Virus record (IMG/VR): IMGVR_UViG_3300045988_020405 | Reading direction: 5' to 3' (one strand) | Origin: a virus | Length of the DNA stretch: 17,746 nt | In this document: one piece after another, positions 1 to 17,746 of the stretch | Numbering within the stretch: the first letter of the stretch is position 1 | Layout: each line of letters begins with the position of its first letter | Notes under the pieces: generated by a model | What the model saw: only the letters and a program-made list of their open reading frames with translations | Database searches by the model: none | What the model was told of the DNA's origin: nothing | Program-made: the position numbers and the translations under genes

Positions 1-99
1 TTTTTTTGCTGTTTTTTTGTGTGTTGGGCGTGTTGTTTTTTTGGTGTGTTATTATATAAGTATCAACCAAGGATATAGAAAGGATGGTGGTTGAGATGA
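1..99. repeat. Left inverted terminal repeat (99 bp)
   Basis: Bases 1-99 are the exact reverse complement of 17648-17746, checked base by base. Identity breaks at 100/17647. The repeat begins with T7, and the unit TTTTTTTG occurs at 1-8, 12-19 and 36-43. Confidence 0.95.
33..60 (+). promoter_or_regulatory. Candidate sigma70-type early promoter inside the left ITR
   Basis: TTGTTT (33-38), 16-nt spacer, TATAAG (55-60). An alternative is an extended -10, TGtTATTAT (47-55). It lies upstream of the first ORF. Motif reading only. Confidence 0.35.
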
Positions 100-332: not shown

Positions 333-584
333 ATGTGGTGTTTTACTGTTACGCCTGATGATTTTACGGTGTTCGAAGTCACGCCTGAGTATGTGCAGAA
401 GAGGGGCCCATATCCAGCCGGTACGTTCAAGGAGGCGTTGGATGGCGTTCTTGATGTTGTTCGCCATGCGTTTGCCGGGTTTGATGTGTGTGTTGGTTTT
501 GCTCGTTCTTCGTTTGCCCCAGAAACGGGGGTTTTGAATGGTGTCGTTGAGGTGAGCTTGTCGTTTGAGGGGGGTGTCTGGTGA
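333..584 (+). CDS. Hypothetical early protein (83 aa)
   Basis: SD GAAGGTGA lies about 7 nt upstream of the ATG. It is tightly packed with its neighbours, and its stop overlaps the next start (TGATG). Confidence 0.55.
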   Translation: MWCFTVTPDDFTVFEVTPEYVQKRGPYPAGTFKEALDGVLDVVRHAFAGFDVCVGFARSSFAPETGVLNGVVEVSLSFEGGVW

Positions 585-826
585 TGGCGAGAGATGAGGT
601 CGTGTCCGTGGTCCCGTCCAAGTTTGAGTTTGGGGATGTGTGTGTGGTGTATTGTCCTCATAATCGGACGTATGAACTGCGGTATGCGGTGCAGTCTCAG
701 GCTGGCGGCGGGCGTCGTTTGGTTTGGTCGGCTGTGGCGTTTGATGCGTGCGATTATGCGCAAGTGGCTCATATGTTGGTTGATGCGAGGGCGTTGGCTG
801 ATACGTTGTTGGTAGAGAGGTGTTGA
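581..826 (+). CDS. Hypothetical early protein (81 aa; start GTG 581 or ATG 584)
   Basis: Start/stop overlap with the upstream ORF. A GAGGGGGG tract lies upstream. No recognisable domains. Confidence 0.5.
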   Translation: MMARDEVVSVVPSKFEFGDVCVVYCPHNRTYELRYAVQSQAGGGRRLVWSAVAFDACDYAQVAHMLVDARALADTLLVERC

Positions 827-828
827 TT

Positions 829-1338
829 ATGAAGAGCATTGATGACCGTTCGAATTGGTTTGATGATGGTGTTTTGGATGATGACCGTGTGCGCCGTGTC
901 GTTCGTGGCCGTCGGCGTAATCTGCATTTGCGTGAGTACAATAAAGGTGAGGGTGATTGGGAGACGTTTTGCCGTACCGTGGCACTGCTCAAGGGCTTCT
1001 ACAAGCCCCAAGGTGGTCAGGTGGCGTTTGCCGACAGTATCGAACATGCGGCGAACATTTGTCTAAGCATCTCGCCAAGTTCGTCAATGTATGCCGCATT
1101 GGTACGAACGCAGGACATTGAAATGTTGTCCGGGCTTATTTACTGTCCGGCGATGGTGGCGTGGTGCGCTGTCTGTCATGTCAAGGGCGCGTCAAGCTAT
1201 GAGATGTGCCAGACGTGGGAGGGTGATGAGTTCGCTCAGACTATCATCAAAATCGCGTGTCTCTGTTTTGACAATCTGACTGATGAACGGTATACTGATG
1301 AAGATATTGCAAGAATGTCACGACAGCAGCAACAATGA
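829..1338 (+). CDS. Hypothetical early protein (169 aa) with a Cys cluster
   Basis: ATG 829 is preceded by AGAGAGG at 8-nt spacing, which I prefer to GTG 820 from the ORF track. Contains C-x6-C-x2-C-H-x9-C (YCPAMVAWCAVCHVKGASSYEMC). Confidence 0.6.
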   Translation: MKSIDDRSNWFDDGVLDDDRVRRVVRGRRRNLHLREYNKGEGDWETFCRTVALLKGFYKPQGGQVAFADSIEHAANICLSISPSSSMYAALVRTQDIEMLSGLIYCPAMVAWCAVCHVKGASSYEMCQTWEGDEFAQTIIKIACLCFDNLTDERYTDEDIARMSRQQQQ

Positions 1339-1697: not shown

Positions 1698-2135
1698 ATG
1701 GCTGACAACGAACTGACCGTAACGAACGGTAATAACTTTTCTGCGAACGGCGCTAATGCTGTGTCCCATTTCTTCGACACCACTACTATGGACGGTAAAA
1801 TGGCGCTCTATAACGCCATGCAGACCACCGACAAGGTGGACGAACATCTTAATGAACCACTGCATGTGACCAACGTGCTTGCGCAAGTTATCGAGGTCGC
1901 CAATCAGGAAACGGGTGAGATTGACTCTTCTACCCGCGTGGTCATTCACGCGGAAGAGGGCGACTTTGCCGCTGCCTCCCCCACATTGGCGCACGCTTTC
2001 GGTAATCTGTTCGCCATCTTCGGCACGCCGGACACGTGGGACCATCCGCTTGCTCTCAAGGTGGTGGAAAAGAAGAGCCGCCGTGGATTCAAGTTCTTCG
2101 ATCTTGAACTGGTGTCGGAAAAAGACCGTGGATAG
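1698..2135 (+). CDS. Probable phi29 p5-like single-stranded DNA-binding protein
   Basis: SD AAGGAAAGG. Eye alignment to remembered phi29 p5: FFDTTTMDGKMALYNA vs FDTETLEGQIKIFNA, and LALKVVEKKSRRGFKFFDLEL vs FKVKVVQGTSSKGNVFFSLQL. It lies upstream of the terminal protein and polymerase genes. Confidence 0.6.
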   Translation: MADNELTVTNGNNFSANGANAVSHFFDTTTMDGKMALYNAMQTTDKVDEHLNEPLHVTNVLAQVIEVANQETGEIDSSTRVVIHAEEGDFAAASPTLAHAFGNLFAIFGTPDTWDHPLALKVVEKKSRRGFKFFDLELVSEKDRG

Positions 2136-3218: not shown

Positions 3219-4679
3219 ATGAAAGAGCGTCGAACGGCGGCAACAGACGGCGCAACACTCTTGACGGATGACGGCACGGAACCATTGACGGCGAACGCCG
3301 TCATCCGGCTTACCATGCTCGACCATCATACACGCGTATGGTGCGCCCACGGATGGCAGGATATCAAGCCCATAGCCGCCGAACTGTTGAAACGACTCCC
3401 CTTGCAATCGAATCCAGCCAAGGACGGCGTGTGGGGAACGTTCAACATTCGCGGCCACTTCTACAGTTTTCGCGTGCGCATGGGCGGCATCACCGTGGAT
3501 TTTCTGGACGTGCGCAATGTCACGCGAGACGATGGCCTGAATGTTTCACGTGAAACATTCGGAGGAACCACCGACTTGGAAACCACGTGGAACATCGCGC
3601 AGGAATGCGCCGCCCTGAACCTCAAGGGCACGACCATAGCATCAATGGCGGTGACCGACTACATTGATGGCGATTACGCCGGATTCAAACGCCATTTTCC
3701 GCCATTGGACAAAGAGGCTTATCATCGGATGCGCCCCGCCTACTATGGGGCGATAGTGTACAGCAAACCGGGTGAATACCGGGATTGCCGGAGTTGGGAT
3801 GTGAACAGTCTCTACCCAAGTATCATGCGCGATGCCCCCATGCCGGTAGATGCCCCCGTGTGGTATGACGGGAAGTATCGTTATGATGCTGATTATCCGC
3901 TGCATATCGACGTTATCGCGTTTGACGCGCGATTGAAAACGGGGAAAACGGCAACGCTCACCAATATCCTGCCAGTATGGGGGTATGAGGGCGAACGCTT
4001 GGACAGTACGCTCGGCGTCGTCACCATGCCCATCACGGATGTGGATTGGGAAACGCTCACGGAAAACTATGACATCCACGTGTGGGAACATGTCGGCGGC
4101 TGGAAGTTCCGCAAATCACACGGGTTATATTATACGTATGTGGACAAATGGTTTCACGTGAAACAAACCGCGACCGGAGAGCGCAGGCAGATGGCGAAAC
4201 TGTTACTGAACTCACTGGTGGGAAAATTCGGGGCCTCGCTCTACCGGCCCATGTTGCATCCGAAACCGTCAGTGGATGGTGGGGTGGATTTTACCGTGGA
4301 CAAACCCGAGTCGGCCAACAGTCTGGCATGGTTGCCGACCGCCGCATATGTCAACGCCTACGGGCGACAAATATTGTCCCGGGCGATGAATGCGAACGCC
4401 GACCGTGTACTTTACGCCGATACCGACGGCATGATATTGGAAGGGTTGGATGCGCCCTCAGGTATCGAAACAGATGACCGGAAACTAGGGGCGTGGAAAA
4501 ACGACCACACCTACGAGAAGCTCAGTATCCTAGGCAATCGTAAATACTGCGGTGTGGAAGCGGGTGGAGATACGGTAATGCGTTTGAGTGGTGTGCATCG
4601 TGCCGCCCCCATCCCCTATGATGAGTTCCTGCCGGGAGCGCGTCACCTCAATGATGATGGCCATAGTTTCGTGCTATAA
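3219..4679 (+). CDS. Protein-primed family-B DNA polymerase (phi29 gp2-like)
   Basis: SD AAAGGA. Motif A is DVNSLYPS (nt 3798-3821), motif B is KLLLNSLVGKFG, motif C is YADTDG, and the KxY motif is NRKY. There is long collinear similarity to remembered phi29 gp2, for example GKYRYDADYPLHIDVI vs GKYVWDEDYPLHIQHI. Confidence 0.95.
   Translation: MKERRTAATDGATLLTDDGTEPLTANAVIRLTMLDHHTRVWCAHGWQDIKPIAAELLKRLPLQSNPAKDGVWGTFNIRGHFYSFRVRMGGITVDFLDVRNVTRDDGLNVSRETFGGTTDLETTWNIAQECAALNLKGTTIASMAVTDYIDGDYAGFKRHFPPLDKEAYHRMRPAYYGAIVYSKPGEYRDCRSWDVNSLYPSIMRDAPMPVDAPVWYDGKYRYDADYPLHIDVIAFDARLKTGKTATLTNILPVWGYEGERLDSTLGVVTMPITDVDWETLTENYDIHVWEHVGGWKFRKSHGLYYTYVDKWFHVKQTATGERRQMAKLLLNSLVGKFGASLYRPMLHPKPSVDGGVDFTVDKPESANSLAWLPTAAYVNAYGRQILSRAMNANADRVLYADTDGMILEGLDAPSGIETDDRKLGAWKNDHTYEKLSILGNRKYCGVEAGGDTVMRLSGVHRAAPIPYDEFLPGARHLNDDGHSFVL
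3539..3560. repeat. 22-bp perfect palindrome containing GTTTCACGTGAAAC (copy 1, inside the polymerase ORF)
   Basis: GAATGTTTCAC|GTGAAACATTC, read directly. It encodes LNVSRETF. Confidence 0.95.
4151..4164. repeat. 14-bp perfect palindrome GTTTCACGTGAAAC (copy 2, inside the polymerase ORF)
   Basis: Read directly. It encodes WFHVKQ, a different codon phase from copy 1. Confidence 0.95.
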
Positions 4680-4680
4680 T
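4672..4680 (+). promoter_or_regulatory. Perfect extended -10 element TGcTATAAT
   Basis: TGCTATAAT overlaps the polymerase stop codon (TAA 4677-4679). It would start transcription near 4687, at the beginning of the structured intergenic region. Confidence 0.4.
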
Positions 4681-4686
4681 AACTAA

Positions 4687-4850
4687 CAGCGGGGTGTGCG
4701 TCCCAAGTCGATTCGACGGCCCGACCGTAAGGCAAGTCGGTAAGGCGATTCGGTCGGATGTAGACGTGCGTAGCCAGCGCCCAGCGACGGCGAGGGAACC
4801 CGCACAGCCTAGCAAACCGGCATGACGGCGTGATTGCCGTCATGCCACTT
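4687..4850 (+). ncRNA. Candidate structured RNA (pRNA-like packaging RNA, or the 5' leader of the late operon)
   Basis: The 181-nt GC-rich gap has no credible ORF. A long-range helix pairs 4692-4704 with 4794-4810. An internal helix pairs 4721-4727 with 4751-4757. A perfect 11-bp hairpin spans 4819-4846. The extended -10 lies just upstream. There is no sequence homology evidence. Confidence 0.2.
4819..4846 (+). terminator. Strong hairpin (possible terminator or processing site)
   Basis: GGCATGACGGC (4819-4829) / GCCGTCATGCC (4836-4846) with loop GTGATT. It is followed by ACTTACTTT, a poor U tract. Confidence 0.4.
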
Positions 4851-4866
4851 ACTTTAAGAGGTGATT

Positions 4867-5211
4867 ATGGACGACACCGAAAACGATGACAAGCCGGACA
4901 CCACACCCGACACCGAGCCGGACGCCAAGCCAACCGACGATAATACGCCGAACCCGGAGTCTGAAACGCAGGATGACGGCGAACCGGAGGACGCGGGCGA
5001 CGACAAGGACGCCGACATGGCCAACCGTCTCAGCGCTTTGGAAGCGACGGTGGCGGAACTCTCCAAAACCATTGAGGCGATGCGCGATGCCGCCGCAGAC
5101 CACGTACTGAACGATGGCCCGGATGGCGACACGACGCCGGAATCGGCTGAAATGACAGACGATGACTACAACGGCACTTACAGCACGTTCGATGATTTGT
5201 TTGAAGACTAA
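4867..5211 (+). CDS. Probable scaffolding protein (gp7 analogue)
   Basis: ATG 4867 is preceded by AGAGGTG at 5-nt spacing. The 114-aa protein is very acidic with a predicted helical segment (ANRLSALEATVAELSKTIEAMRDAAA). It lies directly upstream of the capsid gene. Positional inference. Confidence 0.55.
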   Translation: MDDTENDDKPDTTPDTEPDAKPTDDNTPNPESETQDDGEPEDAGDDKDADMANRLSALEATVAELSKTIEAMRDAAADHVLNDGPDGDTTPESAEMTDDDYNGTYSTFDDLFED

Positions 5212-13348: not shown

Positions 13349-14563
13349 ATGGTAGACGTACAAGCATGGTTGGAACGCACCCAAAACCAATACTGGGATA
13401 TGGACGGGGCTTACGGCGCTCAATGCTGGGACTTGTGGGCGAAATACTGCATGGACAATTACAATCTAAGTCTTGGTGATTGCATCACGCCCACAGGTTA
13501 CGCGGAGGGCAATTACACCATGTTCCCCACCACGGCGGCGGTTGGACGTGTTTTTGAGAAAAAGGACGCCGACTATACGCCCGGCATGGGGGATGTCGTG
13601 TTTTGGAGGTTCGGCAGTCAAAACTACCCCGGCAGTCACGTGGCCATCGTGTGGGGTGGCGTCCGAGGGGATAATATCGACGTGTTGACGCAAAACCCGA
13701 CGCCCGCCGTGCATCAATTGTTGCCGCTCGCGAAAGGTTCACAACTGCTTGGCTATCTGCATCCCACTGCATTGCCGGAACCGCCGGAATCTGGCGATAA
13801 TCCGACAGGCGGTAATAATCCGGGTGTGAACGTGGACGGCGATATCTCCGCGTGGATACAATTACAGGGCGATAACCTCGTATGTCACAGTGGTTCGGGC
13901 ACGACGTCATCGCAATCCGTTTTCTATAAGGCGAGCGCCCAGACTTGGATATATCGTGGCGGCACGGGTCAGCCGGACGCCGACCAAGGTCAGGGGACGC
14001 CAAGCGTAGGCGACGGGAAAAGCTCATACGCGCTCTATGTCATCGGCACTGTCGAGTCATCATTACGCTGGGATGCCGTCGAACCTAACAATCAGGGTAT
14101 CGGCATCGCACAATGGTCGTTTGGTAGACGCTTGCAGGTGTTGAACGCTATGAAAGCGGTTGACGCCGAGGGGTATAAGTCGTTTGCCGCTGCCGCGCCA
14201 AACATCGCCACGCTTATGGAATCAGGCGGCGCGTTCGATAGGGCGATGACCGGTAGCGAGGTCGCCGCATTCCAGACGTGGGCGCGGCGCACGGAATCAC
14301 GACAGGGTCAGCGTAATCAGTTCGCAAAGGATTACGAGGGCTACCCGCAGATGTATGATGATGTGAAAATGCAGATACTGTGGGTGAGCGCCTATCATCA
14401 AAGCCCGGCGGGCGCGTTGAATGTGCCTCATGCTTCATCTCTTACCCAACTGTATAATAATATCCTTAATACGCCTCCGTTCGGGCCATACGGGACGCGC
14501 TACAACACCGTCTACTCGCTGTTGAACGTGTGGGACGGCACCAGTGCGCCGCCGAACTTCTGA
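13349..14563 (+). CDS. Tail-associated peptidoglycan hydrolase: N-terminal CHAP peptidase + C-terminal gp13-type lysozyme-like domain
   Basis: The CHAP signature has its Cys in GAQCWDLW and its His in PGSHVAIVW. The C-terminal part, GTVESSLRWDAVEPNNQGIGIAQWS, resembles the phi29 gp13 N-domain pattern QSES...G.G..QW. It occupies the gene-13 position. Confidence 0.85.
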   Translation: MVDVQAWLERTQNQYWDMDGAYGAQCWDLWAKYCMDNYNLSLGDCITPTGYAEGNYTMFPTTAAVGRVFEKKDADYTPGMGDVVFWRFGSQNYPGSHVAIVWGGVRGDNIDVLTQNPTPAVHQLLPLAKGSQLLGYLHPTALPEPPESGDNPTGGNNPGVNVDGDISAWIQLQGDNLVCHSGSGTTSSQSVFYKASAQTWIYRGGTGQPDADQGQGTPSVGDGKSSYALYVIGTVESSLRWDAVEPNNQGIGIAQWSFGRRLQVLNAMKAVDAEGYKSFAAAAPNIATLMESGGAFDRAMTGSEVAAFQTWARRTESRQGQRNQFAKDYEGYPQMYDDVKMQILWVSAYHQSPAGALNVPHASSLTQLYNNILNTPPFGPYGTRYNTVYSLLNVWDGTSAPPNF

Positions 14564-15731: not shown

Positions 15732-16097
15732 ATGCCAATCCATGAATTAATCGTTATCGGTATCGTATTTTTATTAGTACTGATTGACTATATTACCGGC
15801 GTAGTCAATGCGATCATGCACGGCGAACTGTCCAGCGAGAAAATGAGACAGGGACTCGGGCACAAGTTCGCGTACCTAGCGATTATTTGCGTCGCGTTAA
15901 TCGTTGAATACGGTTCGGACTACATCAATCTGGGGATTGAACTACCGGTGTTCATGCCGGTATGTGTGGGTATTTGTCTGATTGAAATCACGTCAATCAT
16001 GGAGAATTGCGTGAAAATCAACCCCGATTTAAAAGGCTCGAATATTCTCAACATTTTCAACATCGACAGAAAGGAAAACGATGGCAAGGAAGATTAA
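15732..16097 (+). CDS. Holin (phage_holin_4 / TcdE-like family)
   Basis: SD TGAGGAA. It has three hydrophobic segments, the hallmark DYITG motif followed by ..LSSEKMRQGLGHKF, and a charged C-terminus. It lies immediately upstream of, and overlaps, the endolysin gene. Confidence 0.85.
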   Translation: MPIHELIVIGIVFLLVLIDYITGVVNAIMHGELSSEKMRQGLGHKFAYLAIICVALIVEYGSDYINLGIELPVFMPVCVGICLIEITSIMENCVKINPDLKGSNILNIFNIDRKENDGKED

Positions 16098-17148
16098 GGC
16101 AATCGCCTATAGTATAATCGCCGCAATCGCCACACTGCTACTGGTATTCGCTCCAACCGCAAGCGCGGCGGACATGATAGACGTATCCAGTTGGCAAACC
16201 GGAATCAACGTCACCACGTCCGGCGCGCAAATCGTTGTCACCAAAGCCACCGAGGGCGTCGGATACGTCAACCCTGATTGTGACCGCGTAGTACAGGACG
16301 CCTTGAAGGCCGGGCAGGGCGTCGGCGTCTACCACTTCGCGCACACGGAAAACAGCGCCATCAGTGAGGCCAACTACTTTATCGACAACACACGCGGATA
16401 CATCGGCAAAGGCATCGTGCCCATTCTCGACTGGGAGCCAAACGCCCCGTGGGATACCGGTTGGGCGCTCACATGGCTCCAGACCGTGGAAGCCGCATGG
16501 GGCACCAAGCCGATTATCTACACAAATCAGTACACCGAAAATAGTTACGACTGGTCGGCGGTTGTCGCCGGAAATTATGGTCTATGGATTGCCGCGTATA
16601 CGCTAGGCTATACGCCAATATACGGGTTTAATCCGCCCTCAACCCAGCCCACACTCCGCTACTGGCCGTTTGCCGTAGCATGGCAATACACTAGCACCGG
16701 CTATGTCAACGGCTGGGGCGGAGGAGTTGACCTAAGCGTAGTTTACGGCGACCTCAACACGTGGCACGCATACGCGGGCAGCGAGCAGGTCGCACCCCAG
16801 CCCACACCGCAACCCACGCCACAGCCAGCACCACAGCCCAGCACGCCGAACACTCCATGTGACACCAATTGCGTTATCATCCAAAGCGGCCAGTATGTTT
16901 CAATGTTCTGGCCCGACTGGTGGAACGTCAGCGTACCCAGCGGCAACCCGTCAATCGTATACCCCGGCGACAAGGTATGTCACAACAGCGGCGGCAACAC
17001 CGCAACAGTATCGCGCACATACGTGGTACAGGCAGGCGACACACTATCAGGCATCGCCGCATGGCTCGGGGTCAGCATGTACAACATCACCGGGTACAGC
17101 TCAGGTAACATGAACCTCATCTACCCCGGAGAAGTACTCTACTACTAA
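16081..17148 (+). CDS. Endolysin: signal peptide + GH25 muramidase + Pro-rich linker + LysM repeats
   Basis: SD GAAAGGA. The N-terminus MARKIKAIAYSIIAAIATLLLVFAPTASA|AD looks like a Sec signal with an AXA site. GH25 motifs are DVSSWQ, ATEG, YHF and ILDWE. The linker is PQPTPQPTPQPAPQPSTP. The C-terminal LysM is YVVQAGDTLSGIAAWLGVSMYNI...IYPGEVL, preceded by a degenerate copy. Confidence 0.9.
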   Translation: MARKIKAIAYSIIAAIATLLLVFAPTASAADMIDVSSWQTGINVTTSGAQIVVTKATEGVGYVNPDCDRVVQDALKAGQGVGVYHFAHTENSAISEANYFIDNTRGYIGKGIVPILDWEPNAPWDTGWALTWLQTVEAAWGTKPIIYTNQYTENSYDWSAVVAGNYGLWIAAYTLGYTPIYGFNPPSTQPTLRYWPFAVAWQYTSTGYVNGWGGGVDLSVVYGDLNTWHAYAGSEQVAPQPTPQPTPQPAPQPSTPNTPCDTNCVIIQSGQYVSMFWPDWWNVSVPSGNPSIVYPGDKVCHNSGGNTATVSRTYVVQAGDTLSGIAAWLGVSMYNITGYSSGNMNLIYPGEVLYY

Positions 17149-17465: not shown

Positions 17466-17663
17466 TCACTCAACTACACGATTCAAAAAAACCACAGGCT
17501 CAAAATAATAACGATAAAACTCGACCCCCTCACGCTCATACATAACAACAAGACAATCAACAATAGCCTCAACATCATAATCCACAACACGCTCACCACT
17601 GTTGCGAATATAATCAACAACCTCATTCTCAATGTCTTGACGATACATCATCTCAACCACCAT
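17466..17663 (-). CDS. Hypothetical right-end early protein (65 aa; alternative start at 17651)
   Basis: Its first five codons (MVVEM) lie inside the ITR and are identical to those of the left-end ORF 84-311. The rest is unrelated. Its stop overlaps the alternative GTG of the next ORF. Confidence 0.45.
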   Translation of the reverse strand: MVVEMMYRQDIENEVVDYIRNSGERVVDYDVEAIVDCLVVMYEREGVEFYRYYFEPVVFLNRVVE

Positions 17664-17746
17664 CCTTTCTATATCCTTGGTTGATACTTATATAATAACA
17701 CACCAAAAAAACAACACGCCCAACACACAAAAAAACAGCAAAAAAA
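17648..17746. repeat. Right inverted terminal repeat (99 bp)
   Basis: Exact reverse complement of 1-99. The window ends in A7, which is T7 at the 5' end of the minus strand. Confidence 0.95.
17687..17714 (-). promoter_or_regulatory. Mirror copy of the ITR promoter, firing leftward into the right-end genes
   Basis: Identical sequence by ITR symmetry, located upstream of the minus-strand ORF 17466-17663. Confidence 0.35.

Follow-up and report, generated by a model that had tools for sequence, protein, structure and literature searches.

The protein-primed DNA polymerase studied here retains an exonuclease-type fold in its shortened N-terminal domain, and the canonical set of DxE, Nx3D and Yx3D motifs is absent from it. 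The exonuclease of this domain is probably dead or nearly so, and the domain would be retained for its structure and for binding the terminal protein. Given that the proofreading domain is shrunken and that several catalytic residues are gone, the clade to which this enzyme belongs probably replicates its DNA without proofreading, as judged from the sequences. Polymerases of the phi29 type are the textbook example of a single-subunit replicase in which efficient proofreading is united with protein priming, processivity and strand displacement.

Polymerase, genome and N-terminal fold

The window, that is, the whole stretch of 17,746 nucleotides that was analysed, is a complete, linear genome of 17.7 kb with 99-bp inverted terminal repeats (Table 1), and the phage is a Bifidobacterium phi29-like podophage. 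The genome search for a host returned, besides a few canonical relatives, only one contig from a Bifidobacterium metagenome-assembled genome, and Rfam and tRNA scans of the genome gave neither pRNA nor tRNA. The gene directly upstream of the polymerase matches no family in Pfam or PHROGs, so that its product is named a candidate terminal protein from its placement between the SSB and polymerase genes, as in phi29-like genomes; in Microbacterium phage Evcara, the gene at the equivalent place is annotated 'DNA terminal protein'.

Table 1. Coordinates of the features discussed, numbered from the first nucleotide of the window
Feature	Coordinates	Strand	Evidence
Left inverted terminal repeat, begins TTTTTTT (replication origin)	1..99	.	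99-bp perfect reverse-complement match to 17648-17746
phi29-type single-stranded DNA-binding protein (SSB)	1698..2135	+	Pfam PF17427 E=2.7e-15; phrog_6243
Candidate terminal protein, 314 aa	2261..3205	+	Position directly upstream of the polymerase, between SSB and polymerase genes
phi29-type, protein-primed DNA polymerase of family B, 486 aa	3219..4679	+	Pfam, PHROGs, PDB, AF2, Foldseek
Shrunken exonuclease-fold N-terminal domain, aa 1-135	3219..3623	+	AF2, superposition, hhalign, dN/dS
Exo I remnant D10-G11-A12	3246..3254	+	Asp kept; Glu (phi29 E14) replaced by Ala
Exo II remnant H44-G-W-Q-D48 (phi29 N62-x3-D66)	3348..3362	+	MAFFT: N62 to H44, D66 to D48
Deletion junction and Exo III remnant F114-G-G-T-T-D119	3558..3575	+	About 27 aa missing; D119 = phi29 D169
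Motif A DVNSLYP (catalytic D194, steric-gate Y199), intact	3798..3818	+	Invariant in short and canonical enzymes
Motif B KLLLNSLVGK	4197..4226	+	Lys, Asn, Gly kept; conserved Tyr (phi29 Y390) = Val334 (4218-4220)
TPR2-like beta-hairpin insertion, retained	4248..4304	+	Aligns to phi29 397-420; modelled strands 345-350, 356-361
Motif C YADTD (D401, D403), intact	4413..4427	+	MAFFT alignment
Shortened thumb, about 32 aa less than phi29	4584..4676	+	Alignment
Right inverted terminal repeat	17648..17746	.	Perfect 99-bp reverse complement of 1..99

A first-pass annotation, made by reading the letters without database searches, had assigned the polymerase gene to the phi29-type protein-primed enzymes, and profile searches confirm it: the product matches Pfam PF03175 (E=2.3e-32, 112.9 bits for a cut-off of 25.8), phrog_1907 (E=4.8e-54) and the phi29 polymerase of PDB entry 1xhx (E=1.7e-43). 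The family profile of the enzyme aligns to phi29 with E=3.4e-71, starting at query residue 117 and phi29 residue 167, and the alignment to phi29 206-500 runs unbroken through TPR1 and TPR2, both of them insertions specific to protein-primed polymerases. Residues 1 to about 116 lie outside the PF03175 alignment and are not alignable to phi29 or Pfam by sequence methods. The AF2 model of the 486-aa protein (pLDDT 91) matches the phi29 polymerase 2pyj_B along its entire length in Foldseek (E=9e-39, TMq 0.84), and the best viral structural match in BFVD is the BadAztec1 polymerase, of 469 aa (TM 0.87/0.90).

The whole-length superposition on phi29 (TM 0.84), a value that requires the N-terminal domain to be superposed too, indicates that this domain remains an exonuclease-type fold. 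The annotation had also noted that the motif A Asp is residue 194, while it is residue 249 in phi29, and the part before motif A is indeed 55 aa shorter (positions 3219-3650 encode aa 1-144 of the polymerase). The modelled domain (pLDDT 80-96) consists of strands 4-9, 13-16 and 19-22, helix 25-32, strand 37-42, helix 46-59, strands 70-75, 81-88 and 91-97, and further helices, a strand order (β-β-β-α-β-α-β...) in which the RNase H-like α/β fold is present at the N-terminus. Aligned by hhalign to a profile of canonical N-terminal domains, it gives a probability of 99.4-99.7%. A phmmer search for distant homologues of aa 1-155 among 1.84 billion representatives returned 13 matches, 12 of which belong to the same clade; the thirteenth, P0126, is a repetitive protein and was rejected as spurious.

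Exonuclease positions, polymerase motifs and thumb

In the phi29 polymerase, residues D12, E14, D66, D169, Y165 and K143 have catalytic roles in the exonuclease (PMC4974454). Their counterparts at Exo I and Exo II can be placed with an uncertainty of one to several residues, as MAFFT, hhalign and the secondary-structure argument disagree on the register. At Exo I, D10 lies directly after β1 in the AF2 model. All 14 clade representatives, which share 34-76% identity with the studied polymerase, have D10-G11, and none has an acidic residue at position 12; among 70 unique genes of close relatives D10 is found in all 70, position 12 being A, V or T. Y82, N100 and R103 are further invariant residues of the domain. 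MAFFT alone pairs phi29 D12 with D18, a mapping that is considered less likely because D17-D18 is not conserved and lies in the turn of the hairpin formed by strands 13-16 and 19-22; it would set E14 on G19, a position that is acidic in just one of ten members. Under either mapping, the aligned sequences leave E14 without a conserved acidic counterpart.

The register of Exo II is uncertain by one residue, hhalign lying one residue off MAFFT. The HGWxD string is restricted to the studied subclade, down to about 46% identity, and in the remaining clade members the D48 column holds S, T, E, A, I or V. At Exo III, both hhalign and MAFFT place a gap between F114 (phi29 F137) and D119 (phi29 D169). 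This deletion takes out phi29 K143, Y148 and Y165, which are gaps in every short-clade member, and D169 is assigned to D119 by both the HMM profile and hhalign; the residue at 119 varies within the clade (D, E, P, V, A, K or N). A regular-expression match, Y148-I-D-G-D152, was considered as a displaced Exo III and rejected, since it aligns around phi29 F198 and canonical enzymes carry that segment besides their genuine Exo III. In the studied polymerase, three of the four carboxylate positions are still filled (D10, D48 and D119), with His at the N62 position and, in the alignments, Ala at the E14 position, so that Asp or Glu at all four catalytic positions was not found.

The canonical motifs, as DFE[TA], [HF]NxxFD and Yx3D, are carried by 18/18 full-length canonical relatives; phage relatives from Microbacterium, Eggerthella and Clostridium keep canonical motifs, and phages Evcara, LE1-1 and CI461P1 have all three. 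Against these 18, the absence of DxE, Nx3D and Yx3D from the studied enzyme supports, at the level of sequence, the earlier proposal that it has no canonical DEDDy proofreading site. The way in which that proposal had been reached does not hold. The annotation had aligned the domain by eye through the anchors RVWCAHGW/RVWAYGY, FN..G.F/HNLKFDGAF and WNIAQ/KNDIQ, reading LDHHT (aa 34-38) as Exo I, FNIRGH (aa 75-80) as Exo II and TTWNIAQ (aa 122-128) as an Exo III that had lost both its Tyr and its Asp. The three strings exist, but MAFFT, hhalign, the HMM profile and the secondary structure of the AF2 model all contradict the anchors, and all three motif assignments are out of register. RVWCAHGWQD falls on the β4/Exo II segment and not on β2, and FNIRGHFY falls on ISRMGQWY of phi29. 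As for Exo III, its Tyr is deleted, together with K143, whereas its Asp is kept as D119, five residues before WNIAQ, the corrected motif being G115 to D119. H37 and H80, which had been suggested as altered metal ligands, neither occupy catalytic positions nor show conservation across the clade. After correction of the register, another His, H44, is found at or adjoining the N62 position.

The polymerase motifs had been described as intact, which is true of the catalytic Asp and Lys and of the steric-gate Tyr, and fails for the motif B Tyr. D194, Y199, K327, N331, G335, K336, D401, D403 and Y443 are all present, and the KxY motif reads RKY, with Arg441 in place of phi29 K498. The motif B Tyr column holds V in nine and T in one of ten short-clade rows, and Y in 7/7 canonical ones; the Tyr is also missing from the isolates BD811P2 and BP1 (NALVGKM) and BadAztec1 (NSFIGKF). 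In the thumb, phi29 K538, K555, K557, Q560, T571, T573 and K575 correspond to gaps in every short-clade member, and the aligned thumb is therefore read as devoid of the residues by which phi29 couples synthesis to editing.

It is proposed that the enzyme is the replicative, terminal-protein-primed, strand-displacing polymerase of the phage, and that its N-terminal domain would be a miniaturised DnaQ/RNase H-fold exonuclease domain without a complete two-metal DEDDy site. The Exo I Glu is replaced by Ala and the Exo II Asn by His, the deletion of about 27 aa has removed the Tyr of Exo III together with the auxiliary Lys of the Kx2h motif, and the remaining carboxylates D48 and D119 are dispensable in sister lineages. 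The loss of editing would have been accompanied by that of the thumb residues shuttling the primer end between the two sites, and the Tyr of the nascent base-pair pocket in motif B is replaced as well. The phi29 exonuclease domain takes part in the template tunnel and contacts the terminal protein via R96 (PMC4974454). The domain may have been kept here to close, with TPR2, palm and fingers, the narrow downstream-template tunnel that serves strand displacement, and to contact the terminal protein.

Selection, distribution and competing explanations

Over the 70 unique genes, dN/dS is 0.087 for the N-terminal domain and 0.074 for the remainder of the enzyme; the domain is under strong purifying selection, as part of a functional gene and not of a decaying one. 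That relatives are cultured lytic phages also speaks for a functional gene. Neighbour-joining on the polymerase domain gives a monophyletic short-polymerase clade, and the degenerate trait has a single origin, defining a group of Bifidobacterium podophages with cultured isolates among them.

The short N-terminus might have been an artefact, whether of the start-codon call, of misassembly or of pseudogene decay. Start calls in the clade can be unreliable, as the annotated start of the BD811P2 polymerase seems too late. In the studied gene, however, no upstream extension is possible because the open reading frame starts at the first start codon past a stop, a Shine-Dalgarno-like AAAGGATGG lies a few bases upstream of the ATG, and about 80 independent contigs, as well as more than 80 protein clusters, show the same length of 486 aa and the same Met1. 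With a dN/dS of 0.09 and an N-terminus that AF2 folds confidently, an artefact can be regarded as refuted already. It has also been considered that proofreading could be provided in trans by another phage protein or a host exonuclease (e.g., DnaQ-like), fidelity being kept while the polymerase's own site was free to decay. Several early open reading frames have no assignable function in Pfam or PHROGs (84-311, 333-584, 581-826, 820-1338, 1356-1667 and 4861-5211), and one of them, that of 172 aa at 820-1338, is conserved in relatives. This is also the only early one big enough for a DnaQ fold, but its AF2 model is all-helical and of low confidence (pLDDT 48), and Pfam and PHROGs scans of every unassigned open reading frame of at least 75 aa gave no match to nuclease families. 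Moreover, phi29-type enzymes enclose the primer end in a ring formed by TPR1, TPR2 and the thumb (PMC4974454), which would make access by a separate exonuclease unlikely, and proofreading in trans is considered very improbable.

A stronger competitor, although still an unlikely one, is that in the studied subclade the domain works as a re-wired exonuclease, for example a one-metal or His-assisted one, built on D10, H44, D48 and D119, so that proofreading would be reduced or altered. These four residues are all invariant in the 70 unique genes of close relatives. Six members of the subclade, reaching down to 48% identity, all have D10 and D48, carry D or E at position 119 and keep H44, a degree of conservation seen at 24% of the N-terminal domain positions and at 5/17 acidic ones. 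The strong purifying selection on the domain fits a working enzyme too, and since D10, D48 and D119 are conserved above the 24% background, some weak or altered activity is possible. This statistic is nevertheless biased, as conservation helped to pick the residue equivalences. The Exo I Glu is missing throughout the clade, the Tyr that orients the general base has been physically deleted along with the auxiliary Lys, and the thumb residues that serve to move the primer to the exonuclease site are gone; in phi29 and Klenow mutagenesis, single substitutions at such residues cut exonuclease activity by orders of magnitude. Besides, D48 and/or D119 are missing in P0094 to P0099, BD811P2, BP1 and BadAztec1, viable isolated phages among them, and their loss in these deeper relatives argues against a conserved alternative active site. 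A dead or nearly dead exonuclease, retained for its fold, is accordingly the preferred reading.

What follows from it is put forward tentatively: this widespread lineage of Bifidobacterium podophages from human and bee guts might have a naturally proofreading-deficient, and possibly low-fidelity, phi29-type polymerase, with a dead exonuclease site, a Tyr-to-Val change and a trimmed thumb. If so, the per-site mutation rate of these tailed phages would be nearer to that of ssDNA and RNA viruses than to that of other dsDNA phages. Elevated mutation rates are predicted for these abundant gut phages, a prediction relevant to arms races between phage and host and to the high diversity of sequence among their contigs. 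The replacement of the motif B Tyr by Val alongside the exonuclease degeneracy suggests that base selection and editing co-evolved, and the clade would be a natural case in which the structural roles of the domain (template tunnel and terminal-protein docking) are separated from its catalytic one. Exonuclease-minus phi29 mutants (D12A/D66A) are standard engineered tools; a natural exonuclease-minus, strand-displacing, protein-primed polymerase could be of biotechnological use as well, its compact 486-aa scaffold being suited to settings where 3'-5' degradation is unwanted, such as work with modified nucleotides, orthogonal error-prone replication or nanopore sequencing.

Comparison with known systems

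Among the closest known systems is the archetype of protein-primed PolBs, the phi29 polymerase (Salasmaviridae gp2; 1XHX, 2PYJ), with which the studied enzyme shares the fold, motifs A, B and C, KxY, TPR1 and TPR2; the two genomes are linear, with inverted terminal repeats, and have the same gene order of SSB, putative terminal protein and polymerase. Overall the studied enzyme is 89 aa shorter, missing about 25 aa around Exo I and β2-β3 and about 27 aa before Exo III, and it differs from phi29 in having no E14, Y165 or K143, in His for N62 and in Val for Tyr390.

BadAztec1 (Badaztecvirus), BD811P1-3 and BP1 are cultured podophages of Bifidobacterium whose polymerases are equally compact (469-483 aa) and belong to the same clade, sharing the degenerate Exo motifs, the invariant N-terminal 'DG' and the replacement of the motif B Tyr. 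These polymerases differ in being only 34-37% identical to the studied protein and in having also lost the equivalents of D48 and D119. Their records are annotated as 'DNA polymerase' or 'hypothetical protein', and no mention of the exonuclease degeneracy of these polymerases was found in the literature searched.

Outside the protein-primed enzymes, the eukaryotic Pol alpha and Pol zeta, which are RNA/DNA-primed PolBs, likewise keep the exonuclease fold structurally after losing the catalytic residues. Pol alpha retains an inactivated exonuclease domain as a structural module. The exonuclease domain of Pol zeta is also inactivated (PMC7544198). Both belong to another PolB assemblage and, unlike the enzyme described here, they are cellular, multi-subunit and not protein-primed.

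Mavirus and polinton-like viruses do have protein-primed PolBs without a functional proofreading domain, and lower fidelity has been suggested for those pPolBs that have no exonuclease domain (PMC11161782). In these viruses the domain has been mostly deleted and a helicase gained (S3H or a fused S1H), whereas here the fold has been kept and the genome encodes no helicase, a combination consistent with the domain being needed for strand displacement that does not depend on a helicase.

Genome context and gene content

A perfect inverted repeat of 99 bp, beginning with TTTTTTT (TTTTTTTGCTGTTTTTTTG), is found at both ends of the window, so that the window represents a complete linear phage genome of 17,746 bp. 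With T reiterated at its ends, the genome would lend itself to initiation by sliding-back, in which the nucleotide on the terminal protein would probably be dTMP or dAMP. The predicted gene content is phi29-like (see table). Two separate endolysin-like genes lie on either side of the packaging ATPase and holin genes, and the first of them may encode a tail-associated lysin. Over the first 1,000 bp at the left end the + strand is strongly enriched in G+T (GC skew +0.40, AT skew -0.35), a bias that the remainder of the genome does not share. Neither a prohead RNA (pRNA) family match nor tRNA genes were found across the whole window, whereas phi29 encodes its pRNA near the left end of its genome.

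Features of the window and their coordinates
Feature	Coordinates	Strand	Remarks
Inverted terminal repeat	1-99 and 17648-17746		
G+T-rich segment	1-1000	+	
Small ORFs	84-311, 333-584, 581-826		no family match
Early orphan ORF	820-1338		172 aa, Cys-rich, poly-Gln tail, conserved; no family match
Polymerase ORF	3219-4679	+	486 aa
Polymerase motif B	4197-4226		Val334 at 4218-4220
Polymerase thumb	4584-4676		aa 456-486
Endolysin-like gene 1	13349-14563		endolysin families matched only across N-terminal ~115 aa
Endolysin-like gene 2	16081-17148		
SSB, phi29-type			Pfam PF17427
Putative terminal protein			314-aa ORF, by position
Major head protein, tail protein, upper and lower collar, encapsidation ATPase, holin			phi29-like

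The polymerase ORF starts at the first start codon following a stop, with a ribosome-binding site (AAAGGATGG) ahead of it. Judged by its family matches (Pfam PF03175, 112.9 bits; phrog_1907; phi29 polymerase 1xhx, E=1.7e-43), its product is clearly a phi29-type polymerase. These matches span only aa ~132-462, and the first ~130 residues are thus invisible to them. The motif A Asp is residue 194, as the first-pass annotation had placed it, versus 249 in phi29.

Fold and catalytic positions of the N-terminal domain

The AlphaFold2 model, built with a 50-sequence alignment, has a pLDDT of 91.1 (80-96 in the N-terminal 130 residues) and a pTM of 0.88. The modelled elements (b4-9, b13-16, b19-22, a25-32, b37-42, a46-59, b70-75, b81-88, b91-97, then helices) are arranged b1-b2-b3-aA-b4-aB-b5, as in RNase H/DnaQ-like domains. 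Foldseek searches of the PDB returned only phi29 polymerase chains as top matches (E=9e-39), with a query-normalised TM of 0.84 over ~570 columns; this value is unreachable unless the N-terminal domain superposes too. The best BFVD match is the BadAztec1 polymerase (469 aa, TM 0.87/0.90, rmsd 2.4 Å), and profile-profile comparison of N-terminal domains from the short clade (Bifidobacterium podophage polymerases of compact architecture) and from canonical relatives gives probabilities of 99.4-99.7% (hhalign). The N-terminal domain thus retains an exonuclease fold.

In the phi29 exonuclease, four carboxylates bind two metals, a Tyr orients the water and a Lys stabilises D169 (PMC4974454). The phi29 sequence used for comparison is identical to the PDB chain except for the engineered D12A/D66A mutations. 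The by-eye anchors from which the first-pass annotation had read the three Exo motifs are unsupported by MAFFT, hhalign or the family profile. Both aligners pair helix 25-32 with the phi29 helix SLDEFMAWVL and strand 37-42 (TRVWC) with the phi29 strand DLYFHN, which sets C42-A-H44-G-W-Q-D48 against F60-H-N62-L-K-F-D66 as the Exo II segment; MAFFT maps N62 to H44 and D66 to D48, and hhalign is offset by one residue. FNIRGHFY, formerly taken as Exo II, aligns instead with phi29 ISRMGQWY, in the strand following helix aB. The family profile begins at residue 117 (phi29 167) and so places D119 on D169, a pairing also given by hhalign and MAFFT. Between F114 (phi29 F137) and D119 there is a gap of ~27 residues, in which K143 (Kx2h motif), Y148 and Y165 are lost in every short-clade member. 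For Exo I, the sole conserved feature is D10-G11, immediately after strand 4-9, which is invariant in 14/14 representatives at identities down to 34%; at position 12 the residues found are A, V, T, R, S and K, none of them acidic. MAFFT alone placed D12 on D18, but D17-D18 lies, unconserved, in the turn of the 13-16/19-22 hairpin, and E14 would then fall on Gly.

Counterparts of the phi29 exonuclease residues
phi29	Window	State
D12	D10	kept, clade-invariant
E14	A12	lost across whole clade
N62	H44	His replacement
D66	D48	present in window, lost in deeper members
K143	none	deleted
Y165	none	deleted
D169	D119	present in window, variable across clade

Clade-wide pattern and correlated changes

Relatives of the polymerase at 86-96% identity are encoded on ~80 IMG/VR contigs 17-19 kb in length, and gut metagenomes supply >80 protein clusters of them, one titled 'DNA polymerase [Bifidobacterium breve]'; among cultured phages its closest relatives (34-37% identity) come from the Bifidobacterium phages BD811P1-3, BP1, BadAztec and BadAargau. 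When aa 1-155 were used as a phmmer query, a set of 1.84 billion cluster representatives yielded no more than 13 proteins, of which 12 are short-clade members and one is a spurious repetitive protein. The motifs DFE[TA], [HF]NxxFD and Yx3D are present in 18/18 full-length longer relatives (548-631 aa) and as a set in no short-clade member. In a neighbour-joining tree built on the polymerase domain, the short clade forms a monophyletic group, and other actinobacterial or gut podophages (Microbacterium Evcara, Eggerthella LE1-1, Clostridium CI461P1) have, unlike it, canonical motifs. D48 is retained only in the 'HGWxD' subclade, other members having S, T, E, A, I or V, while position 119 is D, E, P, V, A, K or N across the clade. 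BD811P2, BP1 and BadAztec1, isolated and viable lytic phages, each do without the equivalents of D48 and D119. The deposited BD811P2 polymerase (NC_073478, CDS 3387-4724, 445 aa) probably begins too late, since the conserved N-terminal 'TDG' segment, which it has in common with BP1 and the metagenomic relatives, precedes the annotated Met in frame (3273-3386).

The degenerate exonuclease motifs co-occur perfectly with replacement of the motif B Tyr, phi29 Y390 (KLMLNSLYGKF); the window has Val334 at this position, which is Tyr in all canonical relatives. This column is V in 9/10 short-clade rows of the polymerase alignment and T in one (P0094); among the isolates, BD811P2 and BP1 have V and BadAztec1 has I. 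From the shared NSxYG motif, RB69 Y567 is presumably the equivalent of Y390. Y567A is a component of RB69 low-selectivity mutants for trapping mismatches (PMC3799440), and in phi29 the pocket for the nascent base pair is built from Y390 and Y254 (PMC4974454). The TPR2 hairpin is kept. The thumb is ~32 aa shorter than that of phi29 and aligns without counterparts of K538, K555, K557, Q560, T571, T573 and K575, residues which PMC1475753 implicates in coordinating synthesis and degradation; they are also implicated in terminal-protein contacts. Motif C reads YANTD or YMNTD rather than YADTD, its first Asp replaced by Asn, in BD811P2, BP1 and two further short-clade relatives (P0094, P0099).

Interpretation and comparison with known systems

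The evidence best supports an ancient inactivation of the proofreading site that defines the clade, after which the miniaturised domain would have been kept for structural functions; we infer loss of exonuclease activity and reduced fidelity. That the short domain is an artefact is excluded, as it recurs on many contigs of independent origin and is under selection: in a Nei-Gojobori analysis of 70 unique genes from IMG/VR loci, dN/dS is 0.087 for aa 1-135 and 0.074 for aa 136-486, so that constraint on the domain equals that on the catalytic core and this is not decay. In the window's own subclade D10, H44, D48 and D/E119 are all conserved above the 24% background, but a re-wired active site there is considered unlikely because Glu, Tyr and Lys are absent and sister lineages lose the remaining catalytic residues. 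Proofreading might also be supplied in trans, but no ORF of the window has a nuclease family match, and the early orphan, whose homologues occur only within the same phage group (BD811P2 gp04 among them), is modelled, with low confidence, as all-helical.

Structural roles of the exonuclease domain are known from phi29, in which it contacts the terminal protein and, with TPR2, palm and fingers, forms a ~10 Å tunnel forcing strand separation (PMC4974454). In the pPolBs of mavirus and polinton-like viruses, exonuclease-domain loss accompanies helicase gain (PMC11161782), whereas family searches assigned no helicase gene in the window, which could explain why the exonuclease fold was kept. No report of exonuclease degeneracy in phi29-like tailed phages was found in the literature searched; a 2024 review covering Badaztecvirus and BD811P1 describes the polymerase merely as phi29-related. 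The predicted arrangement nevertheless has parallels.

Pol alpha carries an inactivated exonuclease domain. So does Pol zeta, another PolB (PMC7544198), whereas in mavirus the exonuclease domain itself has been lost (PMC11161782).
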